A stretch of DNA of 64,000 nt from an uncultured Dehalococcoidales bacterium (GCA_964519615.1 CAZFIM010000004.1:10086-74085), one strand, 5' to 3'; positions 3,766-24,412 are shown, counted from the first letter of the stretch. Numbers and translations: made by a program. The notes: generated by a model from the sequence alone, not told the origin.

Positions 3766-3890
3766 GTTTATCAACTGCCAAACCTCTTGAACACCACCAC
3801 CCCATATTATATACTCACGACGCTTTGTATTGAAACTGGCAGACACAGAATACTCATCGTTGCCAACTGCAAAATGCCGGAATTCAACAA

Positions 3891-3924
3891 CAAAAACCTG
3901 ACCGCAACAGGATTACGGTCAGGT
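3891..3924 (-). terminator. intrinsic terminator of the XDH-family operon
   Basis: Stem ACCTGACCG/CGGTCAGGT (3896-3904 / 3916-3924) followed by a U-run on the minus strand. Confidence 0.7.
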
Positions 3925-3993
3925 ATAGTGAGGAAGCAGCGCTTTATTAAGCGCAAATCCCTTCATTCGCAATAAATTCTTATTCTTCGTACC

Positions 3994-6276
3994 CTATTTT
4001 TTCAATGCGGCCAGTATCCTTTCAGGCGTTATCGGCATATCCTGAATACAGATACCTGTAGCATCATAAATAGCGTTGGCTATTGCGGGAGTGACGGCAA
4101 CCATCGCCCCCTGTGAAACGCCTTTAGCGCCGTACGGTCCTGAAGGAACCGGTTTATCCTCATAGAGAACTATCTCAATCTCCGGCATATCGAGCATAGA
4201 CGGCAATTTATATGTATTGAAATTATTGCTTTCCAGAAAACCCGTTTTGTTATTGATAATATAGTCTTCGGTAAGCGCATACCCTACGCTCTGTGCTATA
4301 GCACCTTGCAATTGTCCTTCCACCGTTGCAGGATTTATGACTTTCCCTGAGTCACTGACATAGAGGATTTTCAAAAGTGACACCTGTCCCGTTTCAATGT
4401 CAACCTCTACTTCGGCAAAGACAGCCGCAATCGGCGGAGGATTCTGTACCGGTGAGAAAGAGCCTTTGCCGGAAATATTTACATGCTCTCCTTCAAAATT
4501 AAAAATTGAAGTCCGTGCAACCTCAGCAATGGACATGCTCTTTGCGGGATCTGTTTTTACACTGACCTGCCCGTTTGCGATATCCAGTTCCTCAGGCTTC
4601 ACACCCAGCTTGATTGCCGCCTGCTGCAAAAGCTGTTCTCTCGCAGCTAATGCCGCCCTCATGACAGCATTGCCTGTCTGATAACACCCGCCGCTGGCAT
4701 GCTGTCCGTGATCGAACATGGTAGTATCAGTATCTCCTGTTACCACATGGACACTTTCATACGGCACACACAGCGTCTCCGCTGCGATCTGTGCCATCGC
4801 CCCCATGAGGTTCTGGCCTATATCAGGTCCCTCTACCATCAGGTTGACGGACCCATCCTCATTGAATTTAATAAAAGCATTTTTGTTCTGAAGATTAAAG
4901 GGTTGTGCGCCGCTCACATCCATCATGATTCCCATGCCTATCCCATACCTTTTCGGTCCTTTATCCTTCTTTTGCGTTCTCTTGGCATCCCATCCAATTT
5001 TTTCTTTGCCCAGCCGGATGCATTCATCAAATGTGCATGTTTCCATGGGAAGCCCGGTTGAACTCGGATCGCCGGCATGCTTGATATTTTTCAGCCGCAA
5101 CTGCGTTGGGTCCATTCCCAGTTTCTGCGCCGCCTCATCGATAATTTGTTCCAGCACATAGGAATTCTCATGATTGCCGTAACCCCGCACACCACCCGTA
5201 GGAGGTACATTGGTATAGACAACAGTGGCTTCCGCGGCAACATTGGGGCAGCGGTAGAGACCGAGGAAGGCCCCCATGCCTACATTTGTAGTTGACGTAT
5301 TATGGGTAAAATAGGCACCACCGTCAACGACTATTTTCTCGGAGATAGCTGTTATCGTCCCATCTTTTTTAAATCCTACTTTGCCGGTGATAAAGTACCT
5401 CTGTCTGGGCTCGGTACCAAACATATCTTCTTCTCTGCTGAAGGCTATTTTGACGGGCCTGCCTGTTTTCATTGCCAGCACCACGCATACCGGCTCTATG
5501 CCGAAGCTGCCGTATTTCCCAAAAGCACCCCCTATATGAGGAGAAATCCAGCGGACCATCCCTTCCGGCATGTCATAAAGCCCGGCTATCATTTTTCTGT
5601 GCAGAAAAGGATGCTGACTGGGAGACCAGACCGTAAGCCTGCCTCCGGCATCAAACGATGCCACACAGGCGCAAGGCTCCATCTGGCAAATATGGTTACG
5701 GGCATTTTTAAACGTCTTCTCCACTATAAGGTCAGCATCCGCAAAACCCTTCTCCACATCTCCCCAGGCTACCGGAAAACCGTACTTTATGGAAATATTA
5801 TTTTCAGCATAGTCATGTATTTTCTCCGCACCCGGCTTCACAGCTTCCAGTGCATCAAAAACAGCCGGCAGCACCTTGTACTCAACTTCGATAAGCCCTA
5901 AAGCTTCTTCGGCAGTGGCAGCATCTACTGCTGCTACCGCCGCTATTTTATCTCCGATATAGCGGGCTTTCTCGCTTAATACATACATATCCTTGAATTC
6001 TATCTCAGGATGCCGCAATATTTGCCCCAGTTTATTGGGATTAAAAAGTTTATGAGGAACATCTTCCCAGGTAATAACCGCTTCTACTCCGGGCAATTTC
6101 TCTGCCTTCGATTTATCGATCTTTACAATGTTAGCGTGAGCGTGCGGACTGGTCAGGACCTTGCCTGTAAGCATCCCGGGCAATTTGATATCTGCTGTAT
6201 AGCGGGCGGCCCCCGAGACTTTGTCATATACCGCCCAGCGGGAAACTCTCTTTCCTACAACCGATAGATCTTGCAT
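3994..6276 (-). CDS. xanthine dehydrogenase-family molybdopterin-binding large subunit (CoxL/XdhB-like)
   Basis: KVSGAARYTADI, SPHAHANI, MEP, GGAFG, RGYG, GPDIGQ, DSGKVINP..VEGQLQG, GAKGVSQ, TPERIL. Confidence 0.93.
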   Translation of the reverse strand: MQDLSVVGKRVSRWAVYDKVSGAARYTADIKLPGMLTGKVLTSPHAHANIVKIDKSKAEKLPGVEAVITWEDVPHKLFNPNKLGQILRHPEIEFKDMYVLSEKARYIGDKIAAVAAVDAATAEEALGLIEVEYKVLPAVFDALEAVKPGAEKIHDYAENNISIKYGFPVAWGDVEKGFADADLIVEKTFKNARNHICQMEPCACVASFDAGGRLTVWSPSQHPFLHRKMIAGLYDMPEGMVRWISPHIGGAFGKYGSFGIEPVCVVLAMKTGRPVKIAFSREEDMFGTEPRQRYFITGKVGFKKDGTITAISEKIVVDGGAYFTHNTSTTNVGMGAFLGLYRCPNVAAEATVVYTNVPPTGGVRGYGNHENSYVLEQIIDEAAQKLGMDPTQLRLKNIKHAGDPSSTGLPMETCTFDECIRLGKEKIGWDAKRTQKKDKGPKRYGIGMGIMMDVSGAQPFNLQNKNAFIKFNEDGSVNLMVEGPDIGQNLMGAMAQIAAETLCVPYESVHVVTGDTDTTMFDHGQHASGGCYQTGNAVMRAALAAREQLLQQAAIKLGVKPEELDIANGQVSVKTDPAKSMSIAEVARTSIFNFEGEHVNISGKGSFSPVQNPPPIAAVFAEVEVDIETGQVSLLKILYVSDSGKVINPATVEGQLQGAIAQSVGYALTEDYIINNKTGFLESNNFNTYKLPSMLDMPEIEIVLYEDKPVPSGPYGAKGVSQGAMVAVTPAIANAIYDATGICIQDMPITPERILAALKK

Positions 6277-6279
6277 CGC

Positions 6280-6777
6280 TTATTTGCCTCCTTTTATCAT
6301 CATCTCAGCCGCAGACATAACCGCATCAATGATCTTCACATATCCGGTACAGCGGCACAGGTTGCCCCCGAGAGCTTCCTTTACTTCCTGTCTGCTGGGA
6401 TTTGGATTTTCATCCAGAAAAGCTTTAGTCGTCAGTATCATTCCGGGCGTACAGAATCCGCACTGTACCGCACCGTGCTCAACGAAAGCTTTCTGGATAG
6501 GATGCAGTTCAGTACCCTTTGACAAGCCTTCTATGGTGAGAATGTCTTTATCACGTACAGCCATAGCGAGGGTTGAACAGGAAAGCACAGGCTTACCACC
6601 AACTAGAACAGTACATGCACCGCATTCACCGGTACCGCAGGCCAGCTTGGTGCCGGTCAGTTCCAACTGATCCCTTAATAACTCCAGAAGGGTGATATTG
6701 GGAGATATAAGGACCTCATGTTGTCGGCCGTTTATTTTGAAATGAGCAATTTCTTTTTTCACTGCATAATCCTCCAT
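6280..6777 (-). CDS. XDH-family 2x[2Fe-2S] small subunit (CoxS-like)
   Basis: GTKLACGTGECGACTV, QCGFCTPG, GNLCRCTGY. Confidence 0.95.
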   Translation of the reverse strand: MEDYAVKKEIAHFKINGRQHEVLISPNITLLELLRDQLELTGTKLACGTGECGACTVLVGGKPVLSCSTLAMAVRDKDILTIEGLSKGTELHPIQKAFVEHGAVQCGFCTPGMILTTKAFLDENPNPSRQEVKEALGGNLCRCTGYVKIIDAVMSAAEMMIKGGK

Positions 6778-6779
6778 AA

Positions 6780-7652
6780 TTAAGCGGTCTTTATTCCCAA
6801 AGCCTGATGTAACGCCCTCATCACCAGAATACGCGTTACTTCTTTCCTGTATTCAGCAGTGGATCTCACGTCGGTGATGGCACGCGTCTGACCGGCAGCC
6901 GCTTCGGCTGCTTTCTCTATAAGCTGAGCATTTGCTTTCTGGTTATCCAGTATAGATTCTGCGCTTCTAGCGCGAAACACTGTGGGTGCCGCTGCACCGA
7001 TTGCTATCCTGGTATTGCTGCAGACACCGTCATTATTCATCACAGATACAGCTACGCTTACCTTGGCAATATCGGCATGCGTTCTAACAAGATTAAGAAA
7101 GGCGGTCCCGGTGTTGGCTTTTGCGGCAGGAAGAGAAACAGCCGTGACCATTTCACCGCGCTGAAGCGAGGTACACTGATAATCAACGAAGAATTTTTCA
7201 ATAAGTTCGTTACGCTGGCTGCCTGTGCCGGCAATAGTTAACTCTGCGTCGAGAGCCATCAGTGCGGTAGCTACATCAGAAGCAGGTGTAGCCACACAAA
7301 TGTTTCCGATAGCCGTGCCCATACACTTGGCTTGATACGAAGTAATTTGATGGATTGCTTTATAGAATGCGGGGTAGTTCTCGCGGATGTGTCCGGACAG
7401 CTCTAATGCGTGAAGTGTGGTCATAGCAGTAAATCTGACTCCGCCGGACCGCTCAACTGTAATTTCATCCAATCCGGGTATTTTCTGGATATTTACCAGA
7501 TAGTCCGCCTTTATAGCTCCCCGCCGCATCCTGGGCAGTAAGTCCACACCACCGGCCAGTATCTGCACTTTATCTCCATACTTAAACAACAATTGAGTTG
7601 CTTCCTGCAGTGTTGCAGGTTCAAAATAATCAAACGGCTTCAATACTTGCAT
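6780..7652 (-). CDS. XDH-family FAD-binding medium subunit (CoxM-like)
   Basis: FDYFEPATL, LAGGVDL, GTAIGNIC...PASD, DVRSTAEYR. No Cys-rich insert of the HcrB type. Confidence 0.93.
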   Translation of the reverse strand: MQVLKPFDYFEPATLQEATQLLFKYGDKVQILAGGVDLLPRMRRGAIKADYLVNIQKIPGLDEITVERSGGVRFTAMTTLHALELSGHIRENYPAFYKAIHQITSYQAKCMGTAIGNICVATPASDVATALMALDAELTIAGTGSQRNELIEKFFVDYQCTSLQRGEMVTAVSLPAAKANTGTAFLNLVRTHADIAKVSVAVSVMNNDGVCSNTRIAIGAAAPTVFRARSAESILDNQKANAQLIEKAAEAAAGQTRAITDVRSTAEYRKEVTRILVMRALHQALGIKTA

Positions 7653-7701
7653 CTACATGCTCTCCTTCCGATAAAATAATCTATACTATTTCAAGCGGCC
7701 T

Positions 7702-7739
7702 AAAAAAAGACTCCGAAAAATACACGATAAGAGTCTTTT
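7702..7739 (-). terminator. probable terminator after livF
   Basis: AAAAGACTC/GAGTCTTTT inverted repeat followed by a U7 run on the minus strand. Confidence 0.55.
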
Positions 7740-8473
7740 CATGATCCGGAAAGGCCGCATTTATCCGATACACCGATATAGACATCAAGTACTTCATCCT
7801 GCTTGGCCAGCTCCTCAGGAGTGGATTCATAAACAACCTTACCTTTATTCACCACATAAACATAATCGGCAACTTCCAGAGCAAGATTAATATTTTGCTC
7901 CACCAGAACTATTGACAAACCCTCCCTATTTAGCTTCTTAATAGTAGTACCAAGTTCCTGTACGATAATTGGAGCAAGACCTTCAGATGGTTCATCCATA
8001 AGAAGTATTTCAGGATTTGTCATTAACGCTCGGCTGATACAAAGCATCTGCTGCTCTCCCCCGCTTAGCAAATTACCTTTGTGTCGTTCTCTTTCTTTTA
8101 GACGCGGGTAAAGTGAATATATTCTATCCAGATTCCATGCACCCTGCTGTTTACTGCCTCGTTCAGCAATAATAATATTTTCTTTAACACTCAGTGATTG
8201 GAATATTCTGCGCCCCTGGGGAACCAACGCAACACCCATAGTGGCAATTCGATTAGGCTCAAGGCCTACCACATCTTCTCCATCTATAAGAATTTTCCCC
8301 TTAGCCGGAGGCGTAAAACCAATGATGGAGTGAATTATTGTTGTTTTGCCCATACCATTGCGGCCCAATATAGCAACTACAGAACCTCTCTTAACCTTCA
8401 GGTCTACGCCCCAGAGGATCTGGCTATCCCCGTAAAACGTCTGGACATTAATCATCTCCAAGATATCAGTCAT
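7739..8473 (-). CDS. livF: branched-chain amino acid-type ABC ATPase
   Basis: GRNGMGKT Walker A, VPQGRRIF, LSGGEQQML, LLMDEPSEGLAP. Confidence 0.92.
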   Translation of the reverse strand: MTDILEMINVQTFYGDSQILWGVDLKVKRGSVVAILGRNGMGKTTIIHSIIGFTPPAKGKILIDGEDVVGLEPNRIATMGVALVPQGRRIFQSLSVKENIIIAERGSKQQGAWNLDRIYSLYPRLKERERHKGNLLSGGEQQMLCISRALMTNPEILLMDEPSEGLAPIIVQELGTTIKKLNREGLSIVLVEQNINLALEVADYVYVVNKGKVVYESTPEELAKQDEVLDVYIGVSDKCGLSGS

Positions 8474-9215
8474 TTTTTAAAGCCCCTAAATATATCTCCC
8501 GTACCTTTTCATTACACTGTATTTGTTCAGGTTTGCCATCAGCAATAATTTGACCGAAATAGAGAACTACTACCCGTCGTGCCAGAGTAAAGACCACATC
8601 CATATCATGGGCGGAAAAAATCACTGTTGTTTCAGCTGCCAATTCCTTTACCATAGAAATGAACGTTTCAATTTCAGCGACCGATAGTCCCACAGTAGGT
8701 TCATCCATCAAAAGCAGTTTAGGCTTTGATGCAAGGGCAAGTATGATTTCTAATCTGCGCTGCTCACCGTAAGAAATGCTCGCGGCTATCTCATCTTTTT
8801 TATCCCACAGGTCAACTTGCTTAAGCAGACGTTCAGCTTCAGAGTTAATGTGATCATAACGAGTGGCACGACGAAACATCTGATATTTCGAGGGACTCAC
8901 TCCCTGCAAACCAAGGGCGATATTATCCAATACGGTGAGATTGAAAAAGAAGCGTGTTATCTGGAAAGACCTCCCCATACCGATATGTATACGCTGATGA
9001 GTTGGCATTCTGGTGATATTCTCCCCAAAAAAGTACAGATTTCCTGCCGTTAACGGAATCTCTCCGCTGATCATATTAAAAAGCGTGGTTTTACCTGCTC
9101 CGTTGGGGCCGATAATTGCCACATACTCTCTTTCTTTGACAGTCAGAGAAAGATCTTTTAGTACCTGAAGCCCGCCGAAGTTTTTATATAATCTGTCTAT
9201 CTTAAGTACGTCCAT
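8466..9215 (-). CDS. livG: branched-chain amino acid-type ABC ATPase (start reassigned to ATG 9215)
   Basis: KNFGGL, GPNGAGKTT, ISYGEQRRLEI, DEPTVG, VREIYLG. The ORF-track extension to 9305 overlaps livM and is not family-like. Confidence 0.9.
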   Translation of the reverse strand: MDVLKIDRLYKNFGGLQVLKDLSLTVKEREYVAIIGPNGAGKTTLFNMISGEIPLTAGNLYFFGENITRMPTHQRIHIGMGRSFQITRFFFNLTVLDNIALGLQGVSPSKYQMFRRATRYDHINSEAERLLKQVDLWDKKDEIAASISYGEQRRLEIILALASKPKLLLMDEPTVGLSVAEIETFISMVKELAAETTVIFSAHDMDVVFTLARRVVVLYFGQIIADGKPEQIQCNEKVREIYLGALKND

Positions 9216-10203
9216 AGTAACGATCTTGAACCTTTTCCCATATTCGAACAAGGCGTATACCCAATCCACCGCGCAGGAGCAGGACAGCCAGTATAAATAC
9301 CGCACCCAGTACTAGAGGCCAGCGATCAGGTATATAGAGACTGGCAATATGCTCCAATAATACTATTACGGCGGCACCAAGTGCTGGACCCCAGAAAACC
9401 TGATCACTACCGAGTATGACCATCAGCAATACCATTGCAGATGTGAGAAGACTGAGAAATCCCGGCCCGACAACTCCACTGTGAAATGTGTATATTGACC
9501 CGGCAACACCTGCAAAAAGGCCACCGAGAATGAAAGCTATATATTTATAGAGCCAGGTATTATAGCCCAGATGCTTCATGCGGCGTTCATCACCATAAAC
9601 TCCCTTGAGCGCACGTCCAAAAGGTGATTTCCCTATTAACGAGAGTAGAACAAAGCATATGATAAACACTACAAATACCAGGTAATAAAAACTCGTTGGC
9701 GTTAATCTCAACCAGGATATACCCATATCCGGATACATAATCCCCGCTATGCCGTTAAAGCCTCCGGTAACATCTTTCCATTTTATACCTACGCTGTACA
9801 TCAATTGACCGATAGCCAGAGTCACCAGAAGAAAATACGTCCCGGATACACGCAGTGCAATAAAACCGAAAACCGCAGCGGCGATAGTAGCAATTGCGAT
9901 ACTGGCAATAATCAACAGCCAGAAGCTTTCTATTTCAAAACGTGTCGTCAGTATTGCTGCAGTATATGCTCCTATACCAAAAAAGGCGGCATGCCCCAGA
10001 GAGAAAAGCCCCGTATAACCGAATAGCAGATTCAAACTCAAGGCAAAGACACCGTATATAAGTATCTTGATTACCATGCTCCTGATATAGGGCGTAACAA
10101 AAGTAGGTAGAATCAGAATAATTACGGCAATGAGAACATACCAACCGTATTGTAAAAGCCATTTAGGCATTTTAGACTTTGTTTCCATGGTAACGCTTTT
10201 CAC
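9202..10203 (-). CDS. livM: branched-chain amino acid-type ABC permease
   Basis: LNLLFGYTGLFSLGHAAFFGIGAY, GGFNG, SPFGRAL, WGPALGA. Confidence 0.92.
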   Translation of the reverse strand: MKSVTMETKSKMPKWLLQYGWYVLIAVIILILPTFVTPYIRSMVIKILIYGVFALSLNLLFGYTGLFSLGHAAFFGIGAYTAAILTTRFEIESFWLLIIASIAIATIAAAVFGFIALRVSGTYFLLVTLAIGQLMYSVGIKWKDVTGGFNGIAGIMYPDMGISWLRLTPTSFYYLVFVVFIICFVLLSLIGKSPFGRALKGVYGDERRMKHLGYNTWLYKYIAFILGGLFAGVAGSIYTFHSGVVGPGFLSLLTSAMVLLMVILGSDQVFWGPALGAAVIVLLEHIASLYIPDRWPLVLGAVFILAVLLLRGGLGIRLVRIWEKVQDRYYGRT

Positions 10204-11054
10204 TGCGTTCTCCCTAAAAGTCCGGATGGCCTGACGATTAGAATGATAATCATTGTGAGATAAACCGTATATAATGCAATATTAGGGAAATACGCTCTCC
10301 CAAATGCGTCAACGACGCCTATCAGTATAGATCCTATCAACGCCCCCTGAATACTTCCCACACCTCCAACAACAATTATTATCATGGCAAAAAGCAGTAT
10401 ATCCAGGCTAATTCCCGGTTGAATGCCAATGACGGGTGTACCCAAATAACCTGCAAGCCCACCCAGAAACGCTCCCATAAAGAAAACGAAGCTGGCATAC
10501 ATGTTATAATTGATCCCCATACCTATTGTCATCTGCTTATCATCCATCCCCGCGCGGATCGTTGCCCCCAGGCGTGTTTTCTCTTGCAAATACCAAAGGC
10601 CGAAAAATATAAGCAATCCGATAAGAACAATAGCAAGACGGTATTGAGGATAACTGGTATCACCTATTTGTACAGCGTTGCTTAGAAGTACAGGCGGTTT
10701 TCCGATCATAGCCATAGGTCCCCAGACCCAAAGAAAAGTATTGGAAAGGATAAAGACTACACCTAATGTCAGAAGTACCTGTTCGTTTATCTGTTTATAG
10801 AGACGCCCAAGAAACAGCCGCTCTAACACGAATCCAACGACACCTACAGCTAATCCTGCAACAAGCGCCGCCAGAGCAAAATTAAAACCATATCCAGCAA
10901 GGCTCAGACCAATATAGGCACCCAGAACATAAAGAGCACCATGCGCCAGATTGAGAATCCCCATAACACCGAAAATCAATGATAAACCACTGGCAATAAT
11001 GAACAATATCATGCCATAAGAAACGCCGTTTAGTAGATTGATTAATGTTTCCAT
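10200..11054 (-). CDS. livH: branched-chain amino acid-type ABC permease
   Basis: GLSLIFGVMGILNLAHG, KTRLGATIRA, GGVGSIQGALIG, RPSGLLG. Confidence 0.92.
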   Translation of the reverse strand: METLINLLNGVSYGMILFIIASGLSLIFGVMGILNLAHGALYVLGAYIGLSLAGYGFNFALAALVAGLAVGVVGFVLERLFLGRLYKQINEQVLLTLGVVFILSNTFLWVWGPMAMIGKPPVLLSNAVQIGDTSYPQYRLAIVLIGLLIFFGLWYLQEKTRLGATIRAGMDDKQMTIGMGINYNMYASFVFFMGAFLGGLAGYLGTPVIGIQPGISLDILLFAMIIIVVGGVGSIQGALIGSILIGVVDAFGRAYFPNIALYTVYLTMIIILIVRPSGLLGRTQ

Positions 11055-11333
11055 ACAAAGGCACCTGTTCAGCTATTGTAAACTACATACGATCACACGC
11101 CAGTATAATAATTAATCCAGCATATCCCGTTATTACTATAGCAATTTAAAGGAAAAATTTGGGATAGATTCAATTTTATGGTGTATAGCTGTTTGTTAAA
11201 TCCTGACTGTTATCTTATATTTCCACTATTTCCACTCCGAAATACAACTGATGGGTTGGTACGCAAAATTATATCGTTATCAATTTCCATAGCGATAAAT
11301 GAACGTATTAACTGAATACTATGCCGCGTTAAC

Positions 11334-11362
11334 ACTATAATCAACTAAGAATACCGTGTCAA
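11334..11362 (-). promoter_or_regulatory. sigma70 promoter of livHMGF
   Basis: Minus strand TTGACA (11357-11362), 17 bp, TATAGT (11334-11339). Confidence 0.7.
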
Positions 11363-11529
11363 TGATTTCTACCGGTATACAGCACATATTTTTTTCTCAA
11401 TTTTGTTGAATAAATTGCCGATTATAAAAGATCTGAATTACATCCTGGCAGGCAACGCCAAACGTACGACTAATATAACACAGTGACGAGAAAAATTCAA
11501 TGTACTACATCAAAAATAAATGGCATTGA

Positions 11530-11558
11530 TTGACATTTAACTTCTAAAATGATAAAAT
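11530..11558 (+). promoter_or_regulatory. sigma70 promoter of the SBP gene
   Basis: TTGACA (11530-11535), 17 bp, TAAAAT (11553-11558), enclosed by a GATTGACA/TGTCAATC inverted repeat. Confidence 0.7.
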
Positions 11559-11902
11559 TGTCAATCCAATTATAAGTATTGTGATAGTTTTTATTAGAAT
11601 ACCTTATCTTAACATACATGGCAGAATATTTATATATATTTACCCCTACTCATCGGCATTATTTGCACCGCTTATATAAAAAACTGTAATGGATGGAAAG
11701 ACTATATTAATCTTATAGTCAACGTTAGTAGTTAAATGTACTGTTCTATCAACCGGTTGGGATAATATCCGGAGTGATAAGGGAGCCAGAGAGTTTACCT
11801 GGAAACACAGCTGTATGAAAAATGACCTCGAGCCAAAATAAGGAGGTGAAATAACAGGATTTCTTAAATCAAAAATAAGGAACATTTTTATTAAAGGAGG
11901 TA

Positions 11903-16027: not shown

Positions 16028-16156
16028 TGTACCCTCCTTAAATATTTATTACTTCACAAATTACTTAACGAGTTAATAAAAAAATCATCTAACCGTAAGA
16101 CTCCATCCGAACTTTAATCCGTTCTGGGCAATCAGCATAACATATTGTCTGAAATG

Positions 16157-17593
16157 TTATTCGTTTATACCTGCCAGCTTTTTAGCCAGTTTTTTCTTGG
16201 ACTCCAGATCCGTATTACGCAAAATAGTCATCTTATGTGTCTCGGGCGACCCTGCGCCGTGAATATTGGAGACGATATCGCGGCTTTCAAAGGCCAGCTT
16301 CTCTATCAACCTGAACATACGAATCCTGTCTTCAGTGGACACATTGTCAGCGCCTTTTAGGTATTTCTTAAGCAACGGCCCTATATCCGGATCTGCGAAG
16401 TCTTTTTCCGAAGGCACATCGGCGACCATGCCGCCCGCGATCTCTATCATATTACGTATGACTTCATGCAGTTCCTTGCCCTCATAAAGTTTAGAGGTGT
16501 TAGAGAGAACGGGGTCAACCGTATAAATACCTGATGGCGTTGGAGTAGCTTCTACTGAAGCGGCAACAGAGCAGCCGTAAATCGCCTGTATAGTCTTTAT
16601 CATTTCCACCAGTTTGGCATTGATATGAGAAACATTTTTCAAGCCGTTGTAATCCGCAGCAACAGCCGCTGCACCGATCAAAACATCGCCCACGCCGCAT
16701 TTGCAGCCGCCGTGCGAATGCCGGTGATAGTTGCCGAAATTACGAACCATCGGCCCTGCGTATTCATATTCACCGCAGAGAAAGACATATTCCCAGGGGA
16801 CAAAGACATCCTGGAAAAGAAGCATGGGGGCGAACTTGCTGTACTCCACATTACCAAGGTCGCAGTTTTCCATCGCCCTGCTCTCCAGCGTTCCTCTGCC
16901 GTATACATGAATTAGACCTTTGGTATCGGTGGGCACGGCAAAACAGACGGCGTAGTCTTTATCGTCCTCACGCATTTCGCGAGCGGGAACAATAAGCGCC
17001 CAGTGCGCACAGAGAGAGCCTGTCTGATGTATCTTGGCACCCCGCACGAAGATACCATCCTTGTTCTTATCAACAACGCGCAGATACATGTCCGGATCTT
17101 TCTGCTGAGACGGCCGGAGAGACCTGTCGCCTTTCACATCAGTCACACCACTGCAGACCACATAATCGTTCCTCTGTACCATTTTAAGGAAGTCAGTCAG
17201 CCTTTTGAAGTATTCCGTATCGTATTTCTTATCGCAATTATATATTTCAATACCTGCGGAATTGATGGCATCCATGCCGGTACAGCGCATAAAGCAGCCG
17301 CCTATACGCTGTGAGAGATATTTGAGCATTCTTACCTTTGCCAGCAAATCCTCCTGGCTCTGGTAGAATTTTACGAATCTGCTCACCTCTTCATTAATCA
17401 GGTCGGATTTTGCCACTAAAAAAGCCCGCCCCTCCTCCGTATTCGCCAGCGCATAAGTCTGCGCAACTGAAGCAACCATATGCTTGATCAGGGGATGTTC
17501 TACCGGATTCTCTACTTTCTTGCCCAAAATATATGCTTGAGGATGAACTTTCTTGAGCGATTCATAATATTGTTCCCTAGTCATTACAGCCAT
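16157..17593 (-). CDS. 4-hydroxybutyryl-CoA dehydratase / vinylacetyl-CoA isomerase family (FAD, [4Fe-4S])
   Basis: GGCFMRCTGMD and HRHSHGGCK match the AbfD cluster ligands; TDVKGDRS, RGAKIHQTG, HGAGSP. Confidence 0.85.
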   Translation of the reverse strand: MAVMTREQYYESLKKVHPQAYILGKKVENPVEHPLIKHMVASVAQTYALANTEEGRAFLVAKSDLINEEVSRFVKFYQSQEDLLAKVRMLKYLSQRIGGCFMRCTGMDAINSAGIEIYNCDKKYDTEYFKRLTDFLKMVQRNDYVVCSGVTDVKGDRSLRPSQQKDPDMYLRVVDKNKDGIFVRGAKIHQTGSLCAHWALIVPAREMREDDKDYAVCFAVPTDTKGLIHVYGRGTLESRAMENCDLGNVEYSKFAPMLLFQDVFVPWEYVFLCGEYEYAGPMVRNFGNYHRHSHGGCKCGVGDVLIGAAAVAADYNGLKNVSHINAKLVEMIKTIQAIYGCSVAASVEATPTPSGIYTVDPVLSNTSKLYEGKELHEVIRNMIEIAGGMVADVPSEKDFADPDIGPLLKKYLKGADNVSTEDRIRMFRLIEKLAFESRDIVSNIHGAGSPETHKMTILRNTDLESKKKLAKKLAGINE

Positions 17594-17723
17594 TAATAAG
17601 TCCTCCTATCGTCAAAAAAGGTACATGAAGTATACACCTATTTACACACAAACCGTTAGTTGAAGTCTTCTATCAGACTATACCGCTGCAAGTATAATAA
17701 ACCGATTTTACGGCATATTTTAT

Positions 17724-20234
17724 CTACAGATCATCACATTTTGTAATTTCGATCAAACAGGAGTTAGATGCCATTCCTGCGCAGTTCTGAGAAAGTATAC
17801 GAGAAGGAGTCAAAATACTCACACAACCTCCCCTGTCTGTACTGCCCGCCGTACCCACCTGAAGCGGATCATACTTTGCACAACTACCATAACAATGTAC
17901 CACGCCGGGCCTCACTCTCTCCGTTAATTGGGCAATGCCTAATACAGAGCCTCTCTCGTTATAGAGCTTCACAATGTCACTATTTTTGATACCGCGTATT
18001 GCTGCATCTGCCGGGTTAATACGCACTGTCCTATAATCATACCCGCCCTTGTTGATCCTGTTATTGGGGATAGCATCAATCCATTTGTTATGAGTTTCAT
18101 GATGGGTATGATATGACGAACGCGGATGAGGGGAGATGAGCTGAAGAGGATATTGAGCGGTTTGTGTTGACTGGTACCCCTCCCAACTCGGTATATAGCG
18201 CGCCATAGGCGGGCGCTCGGTATCGTCAGGCATATATTTAGTCAGACTCTGTGAAACATACTCTATTTTACCGCTCTCGGTTCCCAGTTCCTTAGCTTTT
18301 CCGGTGCCTGTTTTGGGATTATTGTCAGGGGTATCGCATTCCCTGCCCTCATAATACCACCGCAGCGCCGGTGTGCGCTTGTAATCAGGCGGCAGCGGCA
18401 CAACAAAATAGCCCTTTTCCCTGAATGTTTCCCAGGGAACATAATCCGGCAGCGAAGAGTTGTCAAACGCAACCCTGACCCAATCCTCCATAGTCTTGCC
18501 TTCCGTATACGCATCTTTAAATCCCAGGCGTTCAGCTAATGCGGAGTAAATATCATAGTCTGACTTCGATTCCCCTAAAGGCTCAATACATTTTTTCTGG
18601 TAGACCACCACACGATGGTTCGTTGCGGTACTTTGATCGTGCACATATCCTCCGCATTCACCTGACAGGCTGATGTCAGGCCTTTCGAAGTTGGTGCAGG
18701 CCGGCAGCACGATATCAGCAAATCCGGTGGAGTTATTCCACCAGCAGTCCTGTACCACAAAACATTCAATACCGGGACTCTGCAGCAGATGTACCCACTT
18801 ATTAGTCTCGGTCATACTGCCGATAAAAGAGCTGCCGTGGCGGTAGTACATGCGGCACTCGGAATGGTCTTTTTCCGGATAGGTAAAACGGTGGAACTGG
18901 TTGAGCGAAGAACCCCTCTTTTTTTCGAACATCCAGCTTTTAGGCGGGGTAAGAATAGCATCCGGCATCAGGTTGCGGTAAAGACGCTGCGTTACCGGAT
19001 TGACTATTGTTCCTCGCTGAATGCTCTTTTCCGCATATAGATCTATACCACCGTAGGCATAACCCGGAAAGAAGAAATCGCGGTTGAAAGGTGCGCCGTT
19101 TGCGCTCGACCACAAATTCACACCGGGCTTGCCCATACCCTGCATCGCCAGCAAATATACCATGAGCCTTGCCCATTCGGTGCCGTAAGCCTGGCGGCAG
19201 GCACCGCCTCCCAGACAGAAAGGATCGACCATAGTCCGTTTGGACGCCCATTCACGAGCAAGAGCCGTAATCACGCGGGCTTTAATACCGCAGATATTCT
19301 CTGCCCAACCAGGCGTTTTCTCCACACCGTCGGTCTTACCCATTATATGCTTTTTCCACTCATCGAAGCCCAGCGTACGATTACTAACATATTCTTTGTC
19401 ATAAGTATTCTCTTTCAGCCAAACATAGGCGATCGCCTCCGCCAGCGCTGCATCGGTCCCCGGCCGGGGAGCAAGCCACTTGTAAGCATGAATACAACTG
19501 GTATAGTTGTTATAAGGATCAATAAATATTTGCCGTATACCAAGCTTCCTCATCCACAGCCGCCAGATGGCAGCCTCCTGTCCGCCATATAACCCATGGG
19601 TAGAATCAGGGTCTGAGCTCCAGTGAATAAGCAGATCGGTATTCTGCAGACAATCCTCTAAAAGGTCATAATGCTCAGGCATCCCCAGCCGCCAGTAGAA
19701 TCCGTAGGCATGAGCCGCACCCCAATACCAGCCTTCCCAGCTATCCGGATTGGGATCGATCATGGTGAATCCCAGCATATGAAAAAAACGGAAAAACACG
19801 CTGAAGTGATAGCCCAAAATACCCCAGTTATGGTGTGATGAACGGGTGCCGGTAATAGCCTCCTTGCCGTACTTCTTCTGAATACGTTTCATCTCTCCGG
19901 CCACTATAGCGAGGGCCTCATCCCAGGATATGCGCCGGTAGGAAGCTCTGCCTCTGTTTTCGGGATGGCGTTCCCCGTCAGGATTGAAGTCCCTCCTTAT
20001 CATTGGGTATTTGATACGGTTTTCAGAATAAATACGGCGGCGGTCGGCAATAGTAAACGGGGCAACTGTAGCTTTACGCGGCGGTACAAAACTTTGTCCC
20101 CGTGCTGAGATAGTCCAGGACGGAGCATCCGATTCATCCAAAACAAGCGGACGAATGCGAGTTATTCTACCGTCCTCTACATGCACCAGCACCGGACCGC
20201 CAACCGTACAGTTTGTATATATCTTTTCAGACAC
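17724..20234 (-). CDS. DMSO-reductase-family Mo-bisPGD enzyme, pyrogallol transhydroxylase large subunit (AthL)-like
   Basis: TNCTVGGPVLVHV, APSWTISARG, SSHHNWG, NPDSWEGW, GGGACRQAYGTEWAR, ADIVLPACTNFER, SPHPR, DRGGCVSILTP. GTG start with AAGGAG SD. Confidence 0.88.
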   Translation of the reverse strand: MSEKIYTNCTVGGPVLVHVEDGRITRIRPLVLDESDAPSWTISARGQSFVPPRKATVAPFTIADRRRIYSENRIKYPMIRRDFNPDGERHPENRGRASYRRISWDEALAIVAGEMKRIQKKYGKEAITGTRSSHHNWGILGYHFSVFFRFFHMLGFTMIDPNPDSWEGWYWGAAHAYGFYWRLGMPEHYDLLEDCLQNTDLLIHWSSDPDSTHGLYGGQEAAIWRLWMRKLGIRQIFIDPYNNYTSCIHAYKWLAPRPGTDAALAEAIAYVWLKENTYDKEYVSNRTLGFDEWKKHIMGKTDGVEKTPGWAENICGIKARVITALAREWASKRTMVDPFCLGGGACRQAYGTEWARLMVYLLAMQGMGKPGVNLWSSANGAPFNRDFFFPGYAYGGIDLYAEKSIQRGTIVNPVTQRLYRNLMPDAILTPPKSWMFEKKRGSSLNQFHRFTYPEKDHSECRMYYRHGSSFIGSMTETNKWVHLLQSPGIECFVVQDCWWNNSTGFADIVLPACTNFERPDISLSGECGGYVHDQSTATNHRVVVYQKKCIEPLGESKSDYDIYSALAERLGFKDAYTEGKTMEDWVRVAFDNSSLPDYVPWETFREKGYFVVPLPPDYKRTPALRWYYEGRECDTPDNNPKTGTGKAKELGTESGKIEYVSQSLTKYMPDDTERPPMARYIPSWEGYQSTQTAQYPLQLISPHPRSSYHTHHETHNKWIDAIPNNRINKGGYDYRTVRINPADAAIRGIKNSDIVKLYNERGSVLGIAQLTERVRPGVVHCYGSCAKYDPLQVGTAGSTDRGGCVSILTPSRILSQNCAGMASNSCLIEITKCDDL

Positions 20235-20817
20235 AAAAAGACTCCTTCGCTAACGAAATTTGCAGCATCCTGAAAACCGGTAGCTTAGCAGTGACTTCTT
20301 TTTCAAACTACATCCATCTTCAGCACTCATGAAGGCAGTCCTGCAAGAAATATCCGCAACGGCTCAAACTGAGTGAAAAAACAAAAAGGGCTGCAACAAG
20401 CAAATGCCGCCCTCCTCTATTTTACACTATCAAATGGTAGTACATTCAACTACGCAGGACAAGCACGGTATTCAGAAACAAGACCATTGTGCAATACAAA
20501 CAACCATCCTGCCGTATATAAATTCACCTTTGACGGATAAATAGTCAGAACCCCCACGTTTTTCTATTGCCAAACCTGCTGCAACACACTTGAATATCTG
20601 TATTGCTGACACTTGGTTTGCTAAAGTGAGAATTAAATATACAATCTATTCTTCGTTTTAGCAGCAATACAGTAACGAATATATGAACACAATAATTTTA
20701 ACTTACGAAAGTGGCGATGAATACACATATTTTATCATATTAAACGGTGAGTATCTACAGATCGGAACAAATATACTGTATTATCATTGCTATTTTCTCG
20801 CTTCTATAGTATATTTT

Positions 20818-21741
20818 ATGGATATGATAGATGCCACTGACCGCAAAATTATTCTGGCGCTGCAAAAAAATGGTCGTTTAAGCAATGCTTCTCTTGCCCA
20901 CATTGCCGGAGTCAGCACATCTACAGTGGCTAAGCGCGTTGAACACCTCCTCGAGAGCGATACTATCAGAATCAGGGCAGTACCCAACCCCCGCAAGCTT
21001 GGTTATTACGCCGATGCGTTCATTACAATGGATGTCGACCTGCTTAAGATCGATGAGATATGTGCTCAACTCAAACCTATTTTCAATGTAAACTTCATTC
21101 ATACATGCTTTGGCCGTTTTGACATACTACTTATCGTTTTTTTCCCCACCTGGGAAATTCTGCACAGCTTTGTAAAAGATCGCCTTGCTCACATTGAAGG
21201 TGTACGGCATATAGAAACCTTTTCTTTCAAAGACATCGTTAAGCGCCTGGAAAATATTTTCTCTGAACCAGAGCAAAAGTCGCCTGCAGTACCAAGAGAT
21301 GAGCTGGACTTCCAGCTTATGAACGAGCTGGTTATAGATGGAACAGCTAGTTATAAGAATCTGGCAAGCAAAACCGGCGCCAGTATCCCGACGATTGCCA
21401 GACGCATTACCAATCTGCTCAATAAAGGGGTGATAAAAATTATTGCCCTGCCGAATCCATCCAGAGTTGGCTATATTCACGGTGCGGTTGTCGGTATACG
21501 GGTCCAAACCGGTAAAATTGAAAACATATGCCAGCAGCTTGCGAAAAAAAAGGAAGTACACTTTGTTTTTACCTTGATCAACGGTTTCGATATATTAATA
21601 GGCATCCACAGCAGCACCCCGGAAGAAATGTACTACTTCATCAAGAATTTCCTTGCACACATTGACGGCATCATCGATATTGAGACTTTCATCCGTGCTG
21701 AGATACAGAAACGTTATTACGGATGGATGCTTGAAGACTGA
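20818..21741 (+). CDS. tandem (two-repeat) Lrp/AsnC-family regulator
   Basis: Two wHTH+RAM units (IDATDRKII..GR.S; DELDFQLM..GTASY). Start placed at ATG 20818 (or 20824) because the ORF-track N-terminus is not family-like. Confidence 0.85.
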   Translation: MDMIDATDRKIILALQKNGRLSNASLAHIAGVSTSTVAKRVEHLLESDTIRIRAVPNPRKLGYYADAFITMDVDLLKIDEICAQLKPIFNVNFIHTCFGRFDILLIVFFPTWEILHSFVKDRLAHIEGVRHIETFSFKDIVKRLENIFSEPEQKSPAVPRDELDFQLMNELVIDGTASYKNLASKTGASIPTIARRITNLLNKGVIKIIALPNPSRVGYIHGAVVGIRVQTGKIENICQQLAKKKEVHFVFTLINGFDILIGIHSSTPEEMYYFIKNFLAHIDGIIDIETFIRAEIQKRYYGWMLED

Positions 21742-21795
21742 GTAATACATTTCCTTATACTACCATTTATATCACTTTCAATTTGGAGAAACGCT

Positions 21796-22743
21796 ATGAA
21801 AATTACTATTATCGGATCAGGGAATATCGGCAGTCTTTTGGGTGCCCTTCTTACCGCTGCAGGCGAAGACGTTACACTGGTTGAAATACGGGATGAGGTA
21901 GTTCAGACAATCTGCAAAGAAGGCATACTCATCGAAACTCCGGACGGCACAAAAAGAACTATCCCCGTTAAGATAGTAAAAGATATCAACTCTACAACTG
22001 CTCCCGACCTGCTGATAATAGTAGTGAAGGGGTATTCCACGCGCAGTGCGATAGAAAGCGCGCTTGGGGTTATCGGACCGGAGACCTACATCCTCTCGGT
22101 TCAGAACGGGGCCGGCAATATCGAAACCATCGCAGAAGTGATCAAAGACGATACCCATGTGATGGGCGGTGTTTTTTACTGCAATGTTACCCCTCTGGCC
22201 GTCAATCATTTACTCTGGATCACCGGTACCGGAGGCATCAAGTTAGGTCCAATGAACGGTGTGATGAGTCCAATGGTGGAAAAGGCTACACAGGCATTTT
22301 GCAGAGCAGGCATCGATGCACAAATATATGTCAAAGTTCAGGACGCAATTTGGAATAAGGTGTTACAGAATGCACCTCTCAGCTTGACCTCCGTACTGCG
22401 TATAACCAATGATGAGATCCTGAATCACCCCTCTACAAGGACACTAATGTATAAAATCGCTGAGGAACAGATCGCAGTCTGCCGGGCTAAAAAAATCAAC
22501 CTCGTTAACCCCGATGACCCCATACAGGCACTGCTTTCAACTCTGAAAATGTTTAAAGAGTCCGGTAAAAAGCCGAAATCATCCATGCTTCAGGATGTGG
22601 AGGCAGGCCACAGGACCGAGATAGAGACGATCACCGGCAGCGTGGTAGCCGAGGGAAAAAGGTTGAATGTTCCCACCCCCGTCAACGAGACTCTTATGCT
22701 TTTGGTAAAGGCAATAGAAGAGAAGACCTTCAATATAAGTTGA
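21796..22743 (+). CDS. ketopantoate reductase family (PanE/ApbA)
   Basis: MKITIIGSGNIG, VKGY, SVQNG, WNKV..N, SSMLQDV..G..TEI. GGAG SD. Confidence 0.88.
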   Translation: MKITIIGSGNIGSLLGALLTAAGEDVTLVEIRDEVVQTICKEGILIETPDGTKRTIPVKIVKDINSTTAPDLLIIVVKGYSTRSAIESALGVIGPETYILSVQNGAGNIETIAEVIKDDTHVMGGVFYCNVTPLAVNHLLWITGTGGIKLGPMNGVMSPMVEKATQAFCRAGIDAQIYVKVQDAIWNKVLQNAPLSLTSVLRITNDEILNHPSTRTLMYKIAEEQIAVCRAKKINLVNPDDPIQALLSTLKMFKESGKKPKSSMLQDVEAGHRTEIETITGSVVAEGKRLNVPTPVNETLMLLVKAIEEKTFNIS

Positions 22744-22970
22744 CGGACATGCTCCATCTCAGCCGGTAAATATAACACAATGAGCGCGGCCAAAGCTGAA
22801 ATATCAATAGGCAGTACCGGCAAGAGCTTTGCTCTGATATTTACCTTTGTATCCTGCGTAGATGCTGCTAACAAAGGAATAAACCGTCCTGCTGATTTTA
22901 CAGAGATTGTATTCAGACCTTAAAATCATAAGAGATCACTTTATTAATAACTCGGAGGGGGTAACGGATT

Positions 22971-23348
22971 TTGGCTAACCGCACGTGGATATATTTAATT
23001 GTTGGCATCGCAATCGGGGTTTTAGCAATGTGGGGATTAAATTCAATACAAAGCCCGGCGTTACGGGGTGTTACCCCTAACGTCATTGAGGGCTATTCAA
23101 CCGGCATTAATTTTGATGGGACAGCGATAGGGATATCAAAGGAACCCGGAGGGGCAGGAGAAGGTTATATCATTGCAGGAGCCAGATGGCGGGAATCAGG
23201 GGGACCATGGCATGATGCAGGAACTCCACCAAGCCTGGCTCACCCTGACACAGGCCAGAAGGTGCGGCTGGGAGTAATCAATATTGAGCCAACACAGCAA
23301 GCGCCGGGCGGCCCCGTTGTTGCCTGGTTAGAGGTTATAAATCAATAG
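22971..23348 (+). CDS. hypothetical membrane-anchored/secreted protein
   Basis: TTG start after GGAGG, one N-terminal hydrophobic helix, 125-aa Gly/Pro-rich soluble part; no family recognised. Confidence 0.6.
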   Translation: MANRTWIYLIVGIAIGVLAMWGLNSIQSPALRGVTPNVIEGYSTGINFDGTAIGISKEPGGAGEGYIIAGARWRESGGPWHDAGTPPSLAHPDTGQKVRLGVINIEPTQQAPGGPVVAWLEVINQ

Positions 23349-23419
23349 TGTTGACCTCGAGTCGCGGGCCTTTTTGCTGCTTTAGCTCCGAAAATTGTAA
23401 CTGCATCGGGTAAAGGCAG

Positions 23420-24412
23420 TTAATACCCTCTCTTCTTATTAACCAGCTTGATAAGTCTTTTACCGCTCAGATATCTCTTCAGGTTCTCACAAAAGATATC
23501 TGTGGCGACATCATAGTAATTTTCCAGTCTGCCGGCAAGGTGGGGCGTGATAATCACATTGGGAAACTGCCAGAGGCGGCTGTGCGGTGGTAGAGGTTCC
23601 TCAGCGAACGTGTCCAATCCCGCACCGGCGATTATATTATTCTCAAGCGCCCATATTAGCGCATCCTCATCGATTACACTACCCCTGGCGATATTGACAA
23701 GAAAAGCCCCCGGTTTCATCGATTTCAATTCCCGCCGCCCAATGAGATTGACCGTCTCCGTTATTGATGGAACGGCAAGCACCACAAAGTCACTTTGTGC
23801 AAGCAGTTCATTCATCCGTGATGATGGCAGCAGCAGATCAACATTTCTTCCTCCGGTGACCTCACGGACCGAACGTCTGGTACCCAGCACCTTCATTCCA
23901 TATGCTTTGGACATGCGTGCGATCTCTTTTCCTATATTTCCCAGTCCCACGATTCCGATAGTCTTACCGCAAATTAACATGGGAATGAACCTTTCCCATC
24001 TCTTCTGCTCCTGCATTTTAAGTGAAAAGGGCGAGCGTTTGGCAAACATCGATATCATGGTGAATACAAGCTCGGTAATCTGGATACCGTGCATACCGCT
24101 GGTATTGGTTACTATTACGGGACTTTTAAAGATATCGGCGTATATTTCCTGGTCAACTCCCGCCAGTACGGTTTGGATCCATTTCAACCGCGGGGCCCTT
24201 CCGATAAGGTCCTCGGGCGGCAGTAAGCCGTACACGATATCGGCACGGGAAAGAATAACATCGAACTCAGCTTTGCGGCTGTAATCACCCCCCTGCTCAG
24301 CAGCATTCAACTCAGCAGCATCCACTACCTTAAAGAGGGGACTGACCGCGGCAATGCGTGCCTTATTGCTATCATCCAGTTTGCAGGCGATAACGATGGT
24401 AAGCTTATCCAT
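23420..24412 (-). CDS. D-2-hydroxyacid dehydrogenase family
   Basis: GIVGLGNIG, GTRRS (NADP-type), VNIARG, LDTFAEEPL, ITPHLAG. AAGGAG SD. Confidence 0.9.
   Translation of the reverse strand: MDKLTIVIACKLDDSNKARIAAVSPLFKVVDAAELNAAEQGGDYSRKAEFDVILSRADIVYGLLPPEDLIGRAPRLKWIQTVLAGVDQEIYADIFKSPVIVTNTSGMHGIQITELVFTMISMFAKRSPFSLKMQEQKRWERFIPMLICGKTIGIVGLGNIGKEIARMSKAYGMKVLGTRRSVREVTGGRNVDLLLPSSRMNELLAQSDFVVLAVPSITETVNLIGRRELKSMKPGAFLVNIARGSVIDEDALIWALENNIIAGAGLDTFAEEPLPPHSRLWQFPNVIITPHLAGRLENYYDVATDIFCENLKRYLSGKRLIKLVNKKRGY

Follow-up and report, generated by a model that had tools for sequence, protein, structure and literature searches.

Pyrogallol transhydroxylase of Pelobacter acidigallici (AthL/BthL; PDB entry 4V4C) combines a molybdenum-containing alpha subunit with a beta subunit that carries three [4Fe-4S] clusters and ends in a beta-barrel domain. 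Serine serves as a molybdenum ligand in this enzyme family (PMC10100899), and AthL genes have been noted in Chloroflexota, where they were read as pyrogallol transhydroxylase (PMC3971608, PMC4959651). Phloroglucinol is handled in Clostridium scatologenes by the PGR-DPGC-TfD-TAL cluster (PMC10470551). The third described system that concerns us is AbfD, 4-hydroxybutyryl-CoA dehydratase/vinylacetyl-CoA isomerase (1U8V, 6VJR). Here we describe an operon in which a homologue of the transhydroxylase alpha subunit, an AbfD-like protein, a short-chain dehydrogenase/reductase (SDR) resembling phloroglucinol reductase and a D-2-hydroxyacid dehydrogenase are encoded together. It lies in a 64,000-nt stretch of DNA from an uncultured Dehalococcoidales bacterium, hereafter the window, and these 64 kb are all that was seen of the genome.

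A sequence-only reading of the window had proposed that about 20 kb beside the tRNA-Arg gene form a single candidate pathway for a hydroxyaromatic or heterocyclic substrate. We called the gene families by listing open reading frames (ORFs) and scanning them against Pfam and NCBIfam, and all the families named in that reading were found in place. Our results partly support the proposal: entry into polyphenol degradation is supported, while a complete new 20-kb pathway is not established. The combination was also said to be unlike any described pathway, and in the literature we found no description of this gene combination, of the transhydroxylase clade lacking a beta subunit, or of the variant AbfD subfamily reported below.

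A conserved 10-kb core

The genuine unit spans about 10 kb (positions 14,080-24,412) and is specific to one Dehalococcoidia-type lineage. The AthL-like gene is followed by the AbfD-like, SDR and D-2-hydroxyacid dehydrogenase genes; a tandem-Lrp regulator and a PanE-like reductase are divergent from this operon, and a second D-2-hydroxyacid dehydrogenase comes next. The same order was found in two related metagenomic Chloroflexota genomes, which makes three with the window. One is represented by locus L001 (ENA), which holds the closest AthL homologue on a long contig (85% identical to the window AthL), and the other by L139/L140 (NCBI GCA_963986245.1 and a Logan assembly). The L001 genes run in the order hyp221, 330-residue dehydrogenase, PanE and tandem-Lrp, and then, divergently, DctPQM, AthL, AbfD-like, SDR and 337-residue dehydrogenase. 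L139/L140 have the core with DctPQM and then the FHA and binding-protein genes that also flank it in the window.

The operon enzymes are 81-91% identical among the three genomes. PanE is 78% identical in L001 and L139, and the 330-residue dehydrogenase is syntenic and 73-75% identical in both. The tandem-Lrp orthologues (305-311 aa) occupy the same position in L001 and L139 with 59-61% identity, and the hyp221 orthologue of L001, which adjoins the 330-residue dehydrogenase, is 57% identical. Since the order is kept while flanking proteins have diverged to 57-61% identity, the co-occurrence goes beyond chance, and this is the case for the 10-kb core only. Thus the claim of a single 20-kb set holds for its core; the XDH-family and Liv genes that it also included are absent beside the core in L001.

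In both relatives a TRAP importer (DctPQM) is encoded between the regulator and AthL (L001 6810-9809; L139 3817-6856), at a place where the window has only a 449-bp spacer (20235-20682). Only the coding ends of this intergenic region align with L139 and L001, which is consistent with either gain or loss of the TRAP genes. The TRAP genes at 44-47 kb of the window were considered as the orthologue of the L001 importer and rejected, with identities of 21-40% (DctM 40%, DctP 21%). They belong to a separate TRAP system on the minus strand (44122-49759), beside an aldehyde:ferredoxin oxidoreductase (AOR, 663 aa) and a 4Fe-4S ferredoxin (167 aa), and this set may be another module for organic-acid uptake and reduction.

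The operon genes are separated by 129-175 bp. A consensus scan of the AthL-AbfD and AbfD-SDR gaps gave no strong or convincing terminator. The gap before the last gene contains a hairpin with a stem of about 18 bp, which folds better than all of 200 shuffles (z = -5.1 in the window, -4.5 in L139 and -4.6 in L001). It is found at about 11986-12039 in L139 and 14945-14999 in L001, where the stem sequence differs and the pairing is kept. The hairpin could stabilise the transcript between the cistrons, attenuate transcription or serve as an operator, and may set a different expression level for the 337-residue dehydrogenase.

Both D-2-hydroxyacid dehydrogenases score below every NCBIfam equivalog cut-off. 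PanE passes TIGR00745 (apbA_panE), a broad model, with 219 bits (cut-off 141). We considered whether the tandem-Lrp protein is a siroheme decarboxylase of the AhbB type and rejected this, with 49 bits against a cut-off of 125 and a weaker score than the regulator models, which themselves score under their own cut-offs. Its translation may in fact begin about 120 bp downstream of the called start. In the 677-bp gap between PanE and the 330-residue dehydrogenase there is an ORF of 125 aa with a TTG start and an N-terminal membrane helix (22971-23348, plus strand). The same gap measures 43 bp in L139, so this ORF is not conserved.

The transhydroxylase-like enzyme and the SDR

The best PDB match of the AthL-like protein is the large subunit of pyrogallol hydroxytransferase (4v4c_A; E 2.8e-258, 862 bits, residues 6-834), with 47.6% identity over 827 positions. 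DMSO/TMAO reductases reach at most 258 bits. The AhtL-specific N-terminal domain (PF21423) is present with E 9e-25 and there is no signal peptide, as in the P. acidigallici enzyme. Residues H144, D174, S175, W176, Y404 and Y560 are kept, S175 being the serine ligand of molybdenum. H144, D174, Y404 and Y560 were reportedly assigned catalytic roles by Messerschmidt et al. 2004. By this full-length homology the molybdenum enzyme is judged a true homologue of the pyrogallol transhydroxylase alpha subunit. An exact sequence look-up returned no record of the window protein.

At a threshold of E 1e-50 the AthL family exceeds 3,000 proteins, most of them about 835 aa long and labelled at source as Dehalococcoidia, Chloroflexota or Deltaproteobacteria. 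Across 80 metagenomic loci, the gene after AthL mostly encodes a beta subunit of the BthL type, a Fer4_11 + CarboxypepD_reg protein of 283 aa. In a neighbour-joining tree, which was not bootstrapped, the window protein falls into a clade with those of L001, L139, L002, L141, L059-L061 and L143. An adjacent BthL is found in none of the nine members of this clade, compared with 55 of the 68 informative loci outside it. L149 and L150 (70-71% identity) also have no BthL, so 11 clade members were inspected in all. No BthL homologue adjoins AthL in the window, and a tblastn search of the window gave only a weak ferredoxin match (27% identity) at 49.3 kb, beside the AOR gene. Transhydroxylation is redox-neutral in net terms, and therefore an enzyme with no Fe-S subunit could still perform the hydroxyl transfer; a route for electrons would be required if hydroxyl groups were added or removed in net terms.

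The clade differs from the P. acidigallici enzyme in more than the beta subunit. H144, D174, S175, Y404 and Y560 are conserved in 9/9 members, and the clade is recognised by R153H, H154F and the missing G353-W354. Its genes also have a different context. UbiX-like, LpdD and UbiD genes are found in L141; L059 and L060 have UbiD and a TctC binding protein, while L002, L061 and L143 have Amidohydro_2; L149 has an MFS transporter and L150 two XDH-family large subunits. Judged by family, the neighbours of the clade are of hydroxybenzoate-decarboxylase types. UbiX-like, LpdD and UbiD together are presumably the composition of gallate decarboxylase. In L141 (4165-6562) the beta-less AthL is 76% identical to that of the window and lies 3.4 kb from this trio and from a carboxylic-acid-reductase-like AMP-binding/NAD_binding_4 protein.

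A separate observation concerns the wider AthL family. A smaller enzyme of about 745 aa with the bis(molybdopterin guanine dinucleotide) type of cofactor (Mo-bisMGD) and an N-terminal Fe4S4 domain is encoded, with a 109-aa ferredoxin, directly before AthL-BthL (about 2.5 kb upstream) in six loci (L080, L084, L087, L094, L105, L138). This recurrence looks like an uncharacterised arrangement of two molybdenum enzymes.

An SDR (c2), a cyclase-family protein (c3), a cupin (c4), a 3HCDH protein (c7) and a BKACE protein (c9) recur across the wider set of AthL-BthL loci, together with Liv-type or TRAP importers. By family and similarity this neighbour set matches the PGR-DPGC-TfD-TAL cluster of PMC10470551. 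The c3 cyclase representative shares 44% identity (E 3e-80) with CsDPGC, whose sequence was taken from the supplement of that paper. SDRs found beside DPGC, TfD, TAL or AthL-BthL in such clusters of Chloroflexota and Desulfobacterota metagenomes share 52-63% identity with the window SDR, which is nested among them in a neighbour-joining tree. In the described reductase a TR(S/N) motif binds the 2'-phosphate of NADPH (PMC10470551). At this place the window SDR has S-R-N (ASRN), with Ser for Thr and the Arg present, and the homologues defined by context have S-R-N or S-R-K. The active-site region SS(V/I)RG...Y..(T/S)KGAV is common to all of them. Genomic context and phylogeny thus mark the SDR as phloroglucinol-reductase-like. 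Unlike in the described cluster, in the window operon the AbfD-like protein and a D-2-hydroxyacid dehydrogenase occupy the place of DPGC (cyclase family), TfD (3HCDH) and TAL (BKACE).

The AbfD-like protein

The AbfD-like protein matches the 4-hydroxybutyryl-CoA dehydratase of C. aminobutyricum (PDB 1u8v) with E 2e-135 and 44.8% identity. It shares with AbfD both Pfam domains, the length, the [4Fe-4S] ligands C99, C103, H292 and C299, and residues T190 and K300. We compared further residues in an alignment of 50 family members. The window protein has E257 replaced by Ala, Y296 by His, E455 by Ser, Q101 by Met and R90 by Lys. Together with 24 relatives that are 72-91% identical to it, it forms a subfamily in which position 257 is Ala or Ser, 296 is His, 455 is Ser, 101 is Met and 90 is almost always Lys. 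All sequences closer to the clostridial enzyme keep R, Q, E, Y and E at R90, Q101, E257, Y296 and E455; they include other Dehalococcoidales, Clostridia, Bacteroidota and archaea. E257, Y296 and E455 are kept in 20/20 sequences with at least 50% identity to the C. aminobutyricum enzyme.

Y296, E455 and E257 are said to have been proposed, by Zhang et al. in 2015, to generate the flavin radical. T190, E257, Y296 and E455 were reported to be important for dehydratase activity (bioRxiv 10.1101/2020.02.05.935528, citing mutagenesis of the C. aminobutyricum enzyme), and three of these four are lost here. Since they are lost, the radical dehydration that had been proposed for this protein is doubtful, and we do not uphold it. 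By its residues the protein falls outside the canonical radical 4-hydroxybutyryl-CoA dehydratases; the label AbfD-like is right for its fold.

The subfamily is tight, and the best 120 database matches of the window protein are all at least 78% identical to it. It is found in Dehalococcoidia, Desulfobacterota, Syntrophus and Acidobacteriota metagenome-assembled genomes (MAGs; loci L003-L025, L144, L145). The usual neighbours are divergent sucC and sucD genes (SucD scores above its NCBIfam cut-off and SucC just below), LutA/LutB-like Fe-S proteins and a dihydrolipoyl-dehydrogenase-like protein, with no AthL. This setting is another difference from the known AbfD, and it suggests an acyl-CoA substrate. 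The window protein is about 80% identical to the sucCD-linked copies, and the AthL-linked copies branch off shallowly within the subfamily and are no deep paralogue. An orthologue of the 337-residue dehydrogenase directly follows the AbfD-like gene in L005 (71% identity) and L025 (63%), where AthL is absent; L025 further carries OFOR, CitMHS and a CoA transferase of family III (CoA_transf_3).

Proposed role, alternatives and neighbouring genes

We consider it about an even bet (probability near 0.5) that the core is a lineage-specific operon for the first two steps of anaerobic trihydroxybenzene degradation, with further enzymes for acid intermediates and with ring opening encoded elsewhere. 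The cytoplasmic, beta-less enzyme of the transhydroxylase family would shift a hydroxyl group of a phenol of the pyrogallol or hydroxyhydroquinone type in a redox-neutral reaction, giving a product with a 1,3,5-hydroxyl pattern. The phloroglucinol-reductase-type SDR would then dearomatise this product with NADPH. The genes for ring opening (DPGC, TfD and TAL) would have to lie in the genome outside these 64 kb. Hydroxy- or oxo-acid intermediates, or their CoA esters, would probably be the substrates of the PanE-like protein, both D-2-hydroxyacid dehydrogenases and the AbfD-like protein, and the Liv-type importer may supply an aromatic acid. Hydroxyl rearrangement followed by NADPH-dependent dearomatisation is a reasonable reading of the AthL homology and the placement of the SDR, and this part of the earlier proposal stands. 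Its second molybdenum step, assigned to the XDH-family enzyme, finds no support. The recurrence of TRAP and Liv-type importers beside AthL genes also speaks for such an operon.

Several results weigh against this explanation. The AthL-AbfD linkage is limited to three related genomes: homologues of AbfD, the dehydrogenases, PanE and tandem-Lrp were found in 0/80 other AthL metagenome loci, and AthL was next door in 0/21 other AbfD-like loci (72-80% identity; from 56 genome loci). We therefore rejected a widespread AthL-AbfD pair, and co-occurrence in other genomes, the check suggested with the sequence-only reading, was found only in L001 and L139/L140. The pathway is incomplete as seen. A tblastn search with six representatives per family found none of DPGC, TfD and TAL in the 64-kb window, and tblastn found nothing relevant for UbiD, Amidohydro_2, BthL, thiolase, ACAD, SucCD or LutAB in the same 64 kb, which thus hold no decarboxylase of these types. 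In agreement with the sequence-only reading, Pfam scans of the block gave no ring hydrolase, C-C-cleaving enzyme, CoA ligase or CoA transferase. Pocket positions 153, 154, 353 and 354 are unlike those of the P. acidigallici enzyme, and the substrate may not be pyrogallol. The reductase assignment is based on an unbootstrapped tree and on context, in a comparison that included no characterised reductase sequence, and naming the SDR by PDB or NCBIfam was unsuccessful, giving generic SDR names and no recognisable phloroglucinol reductase entry. Given the sucCD and lutAB-like context of its subfamily, the AbfD-like protein may do its usual, unrelated job here. Finally, separate regulation is possible, given the intergenic gaps and the strong hairpin that precedes the last gene.

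It is possible, at odds well short of even, that the operon is a mosaic. AthL and the SDR (phenol entry) and the AbfD-like protein with its dehydrogenase (conversion of oxo- or hydroxy-acid-CoA) would then share a transcription unit and no pathway, and PanE may be a housekeeping pantoate gene, as its score above the TIGR00745 cut-off would allow. AthL and SDR occur in many loci with no AbfD, the AbfD-like gene and its dehydrogenase are paired in L005 and L025 with no AthL, and the window AbfD-like protein, similar to the sucCD-linked copies, shows no deep paralogy. What speaks against a mosaic is the arrangement itself. The two pairs are interleaved (AthL-AbfD-SDR-dehydrogenase) instead of juxtaposed, this order has outlasted the divergence of the flanking proteins in three genomes, and the first two gaps have no strong terminator.

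The interleaving and its conservation would also fit a complete new route, in which the AbfD-like protein and the three 2-oxoacid reductases replace DPGC, TfD and TAL, and a carboxylated polyphenol enters through a TRAP or Liv-type importer. DPGC, TfD and TAL are missing from the window, the altered active site of the AbfD-like protein permits different chemistry, the relatives have a TRAP DctP importer, and the window binding protein matches PDB entries other than LivJ/K. TRAP DctP proteins are carboxylate binders. We regard this route as unlikely, in view of a cluster with no hydrolase, C-C-cleaving or CoA-activating enzyme, of an AbfD-like subfamily that is widespread with no AthL, and of the mere 64 kb of genome that are visible. 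Just as unlikely is a bolder form of the same idea. In it, the AbfD-like protein would represent a large, unrecognised, distinct [4Fe-4S]/flavin family that catalyses something other than dehydration of 4-hydroxybutyryl-CoA (the proposed radical-generating Tyr-Glu-Glu replaced by His-Ser-Ala), recruited in this lineage with the dehydrogenases into an operon of beta-less transhydroxylase and SDR to serve an anaerobic route for trihydroxybenzenes, perhaps carboxylated ones, that bypasses DPGC, TfD and TAL.

The genes of the core and its surroundings are listed in Table 1.

Table 1. Features of the core and of the adjoining part of the window (positions counted from the first nucleotide of the window)
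Feature	Position	Strand	Description
AthL-like Mo-bisMGD enzyme	17724-20234	-	836 aa, GTG start; Pfam AhtL-like_1st + Molybdopterin + Molydop_binding
AbfD/HpaB-family protein	16157-17593	-	478 aa; [4Fe-4S]/FAD-type; Pfam HpaB_N + HpaB
SDR, phloroglucinol-reductase-like	15269-16027	-	252 aa; Pfam adh_short_C2
Hairpin between SDR and 337-aa dehydrogenase genes	15121-15181	-	folding compared with shuffles
D-2-hydroxyacid dehydrogenase, last operon gene	14080-15093	-	337 aa; Pfam 2-Hacid_dh + 2-Hacid_dh_C
Tandem Lrp/AsnC-type regulator, divergent from AthL operon	20683-21741	+	Pfam 2x (HTH_AsnC + AsnC_trans_reg)
PanE/ApbA-family 2-oxoacid reductase	21796-22743	+	315 aa; Pfam ApbA + ApbA_C
Second D-2-hydroxyacid dehydrogenase, convergent	23420-24412	-	330 aa; Pfam 2-Hacid_dh_C
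Conserved hypothetical protein (hyp221), core edge	24606-25271	+	221 aa; no Pfam match
FHA-domain protein, neighbour	13309-14064	+	251 aa; Pfam FHA
Peripla_BP_6 lipoprotein binding protein, neighbour	11903-13099	+	Pfam
LivF, LivG, LivM, LivH ABC importer components, neighbours	7739-11054	-	Pfam
XDH-family enzyme, three subunits	3994-7652	-	FAD 6780-7652, 2Fe-2S 6280-6777, Mo 3994-6276; Pfam
tRNA-His(GTG)	3500-3575	+	ARAGORN, Rfam
tRNA-Arg(TCG)	3690-3765	+	ARAGORN, Rfam; left boundary

The XDH-family enzyme and the Liv importer are neighbours and not members of the core, and the XDH-family enzyme has no demonstrated link to it. The full 20-kb arrangement is common only to the window and its nearest relative, which probably keeps it split over two contigs. 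Contig L139 ends at the binding-protein gene (protein 92% identical; the FHA protein, absent at L001, is 65% identical). L146, from the same MAG, begins within LivM and continues with LivG, LivF, XdhM, XdhS and XdhL at 88-91% identity. It is the only locus that keeps the Liv-XDH adjacency, and its synteny with the window stops at the XDH large subunit, downstream of which the two are unlike.

The Liv components match their families in Pfam, and in L083, L119 and L120 AthL genes again have importers with 41-57% identity to them as neighbours. The binding protein has a lipoprotein signal. Its PDB matches at E 1e-8 or better are limited to 4zpj, 4ey3/4eyg/4eyk, 4evs, 4evq and 4f06, with LivJ/K absent among them, and it scores 35 bits with NF011933 (cut-off 477), too low for a LivJ/LivK orthologue. 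Apart from 4zpj, these entries are reportedly hydroxybenzoate-binding proteins of Rhodopseudomonas palustris, with lignin-derived benzoates as ligands (Michalska et al. 2012). The R. palustris Peripla_BP_6 proteins (4EVQ, 4EVS, 4EY3, 4F06) are thus, with 4ZPJ, the sole relatives at this level, although the identity of the window protein to them is low (E 1e-15 to 1e-31). From these matches it is plausible that the Liv-type importer takes up aromatic acids. The 850-bp intergenic region between the divergent livH and binding-protein genes (11055-11902) has 33% GC and contains the best two sigma-70-like matches of the scanned stretch, at 11530-11558 (plus strand) and 11362-11334 (minus strand), with 11 of 12 positions each.

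The best PDB match of the XDH-family molybdenum subunit is the alpha subunit of 4-hydroxybenzoyl-CoA reductase (1rm6_A, E 2e-110), and the two enzymes share the three-subunit architecture of Mo, 2Fe-2S and FAD proteins. The window subunits nevertheless differ from 1RM6 in scoring below the NCBIfam cut-offs for this reductase (alpha 559/995 bits, gamma 188/258, beta 107/about 405), as they do for every other NCBIfam equivalog, and the 290-aa FAD subunit matches HcrB over residues 3-122 only, leaving the HcrB-specific part unmatched. We therefore rejected the assignment as 4-hydroxybenzoyl-CoA reductase. An orthologue with 72% identity (L147/L148) lies beside an AOR gene, two CoA_transf_3 genes, ECH and another molybdenum enzyme, with no Liv or AthL genes nearby. 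In two unrelated loci XDH-family genes are found directly upstream of AthL (L150, 4738-12517; L087, 1788-5416). They are only 33-35% identical to those of the window, and the theme recurs with no orthology.

As had been noted, the Liv and binding-protein stretch is AT-richer, with a GC content of 0.43-0.45 (0.38-0.44 at third codon positions, GC3). The large genes located at 36-41, 52-55 and 61-63 kb have a GC content of 0.53-0.58 and a GC3 of 0.60-0.67; they are valS, polX and secA in the sequence-only reading, from which alone the names come. The AthL operon is intermediate, with a GC3 of 0.50-0.55. A GC scan showed that the lower GC3 spans the whole left 30 kb relative to the right half of the window, beyond the block. 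No integrase was seen and no direct repeats were seen at the tRNA genes, although no dedicated repeat search was made. An Rfam scan of the window returned the two tRNAs only and no riboswitch.

We find it quite improbable that the whole block of 3.8-24.4 kb is one pathway with two molybdenum enzymes, possibly an island at the tRNA genes. The arrangement in the nearest relative, the XDH-family genes that adjoin AthL in L087 and L150, and a GC3 below that of the large genes with tRNA genes adjacent would all fit such a block. Against it stand the core of L001, which has MarR, an OYE-type reductase and electron-transfer flavoprotein genes in place of FHA, the binding protein, Liv and XDH, the non-orthology of the L087 and L150 enzymes, the 72% orthologue in its different setting, the absence of a visible integrase, and the extent of the GC3 shift. 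It is hardly credible that the molybdenum enzyme is a stand-alone cytoplasmic S-/N-oxide reductase of the BisC/TorZ type in a cluster unrelated to aromatics: like BisC it consists of one subunit and lacks an Fe-S partner, its homologues are called 'S/N-oxide reductase-like' by JGI and it scores 363 bits with the NCBIfam model bisC_fam, but this is far under the cut-off of 1017, and its much higher score with the transhydroxylase alpha subunit, the AhtL-specific domain, the four kept residues H144, D174, Y404 and Y560, and the decarboxylase-type neighbours of its clade all point elsewhere.

The main interest of the locus lies in two side results that can be tested: that a clade of transhydroxylase-family enzymes lacks an adjacent beta-subunit gene, and that the AbfD-like subfamily is non-canonical. 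The clade makes the long-standing question of the role of the beta subunit directly testable. JGI and NCBI name members of the AbfD-like subfamily 4-hydroxybutyryl-CoA dehydratase, and metagenome surveys take this enzyme (K14534) as a marker of autotrophic cycles (e.g. PMC10645885). Therefore, marker-gene surveys may miscount the 'abfD' genes of Dehalococcoidia, Desulfobacterota and Acidobacteriota MAGs, which lack residues reported to matter for dehydratase activity. The breakdown of polyphenols and tannins under anoxic conditions bears on carbon storage in sediments and peat, where Dehalococcoidia and other Chloroflexota are abundant.

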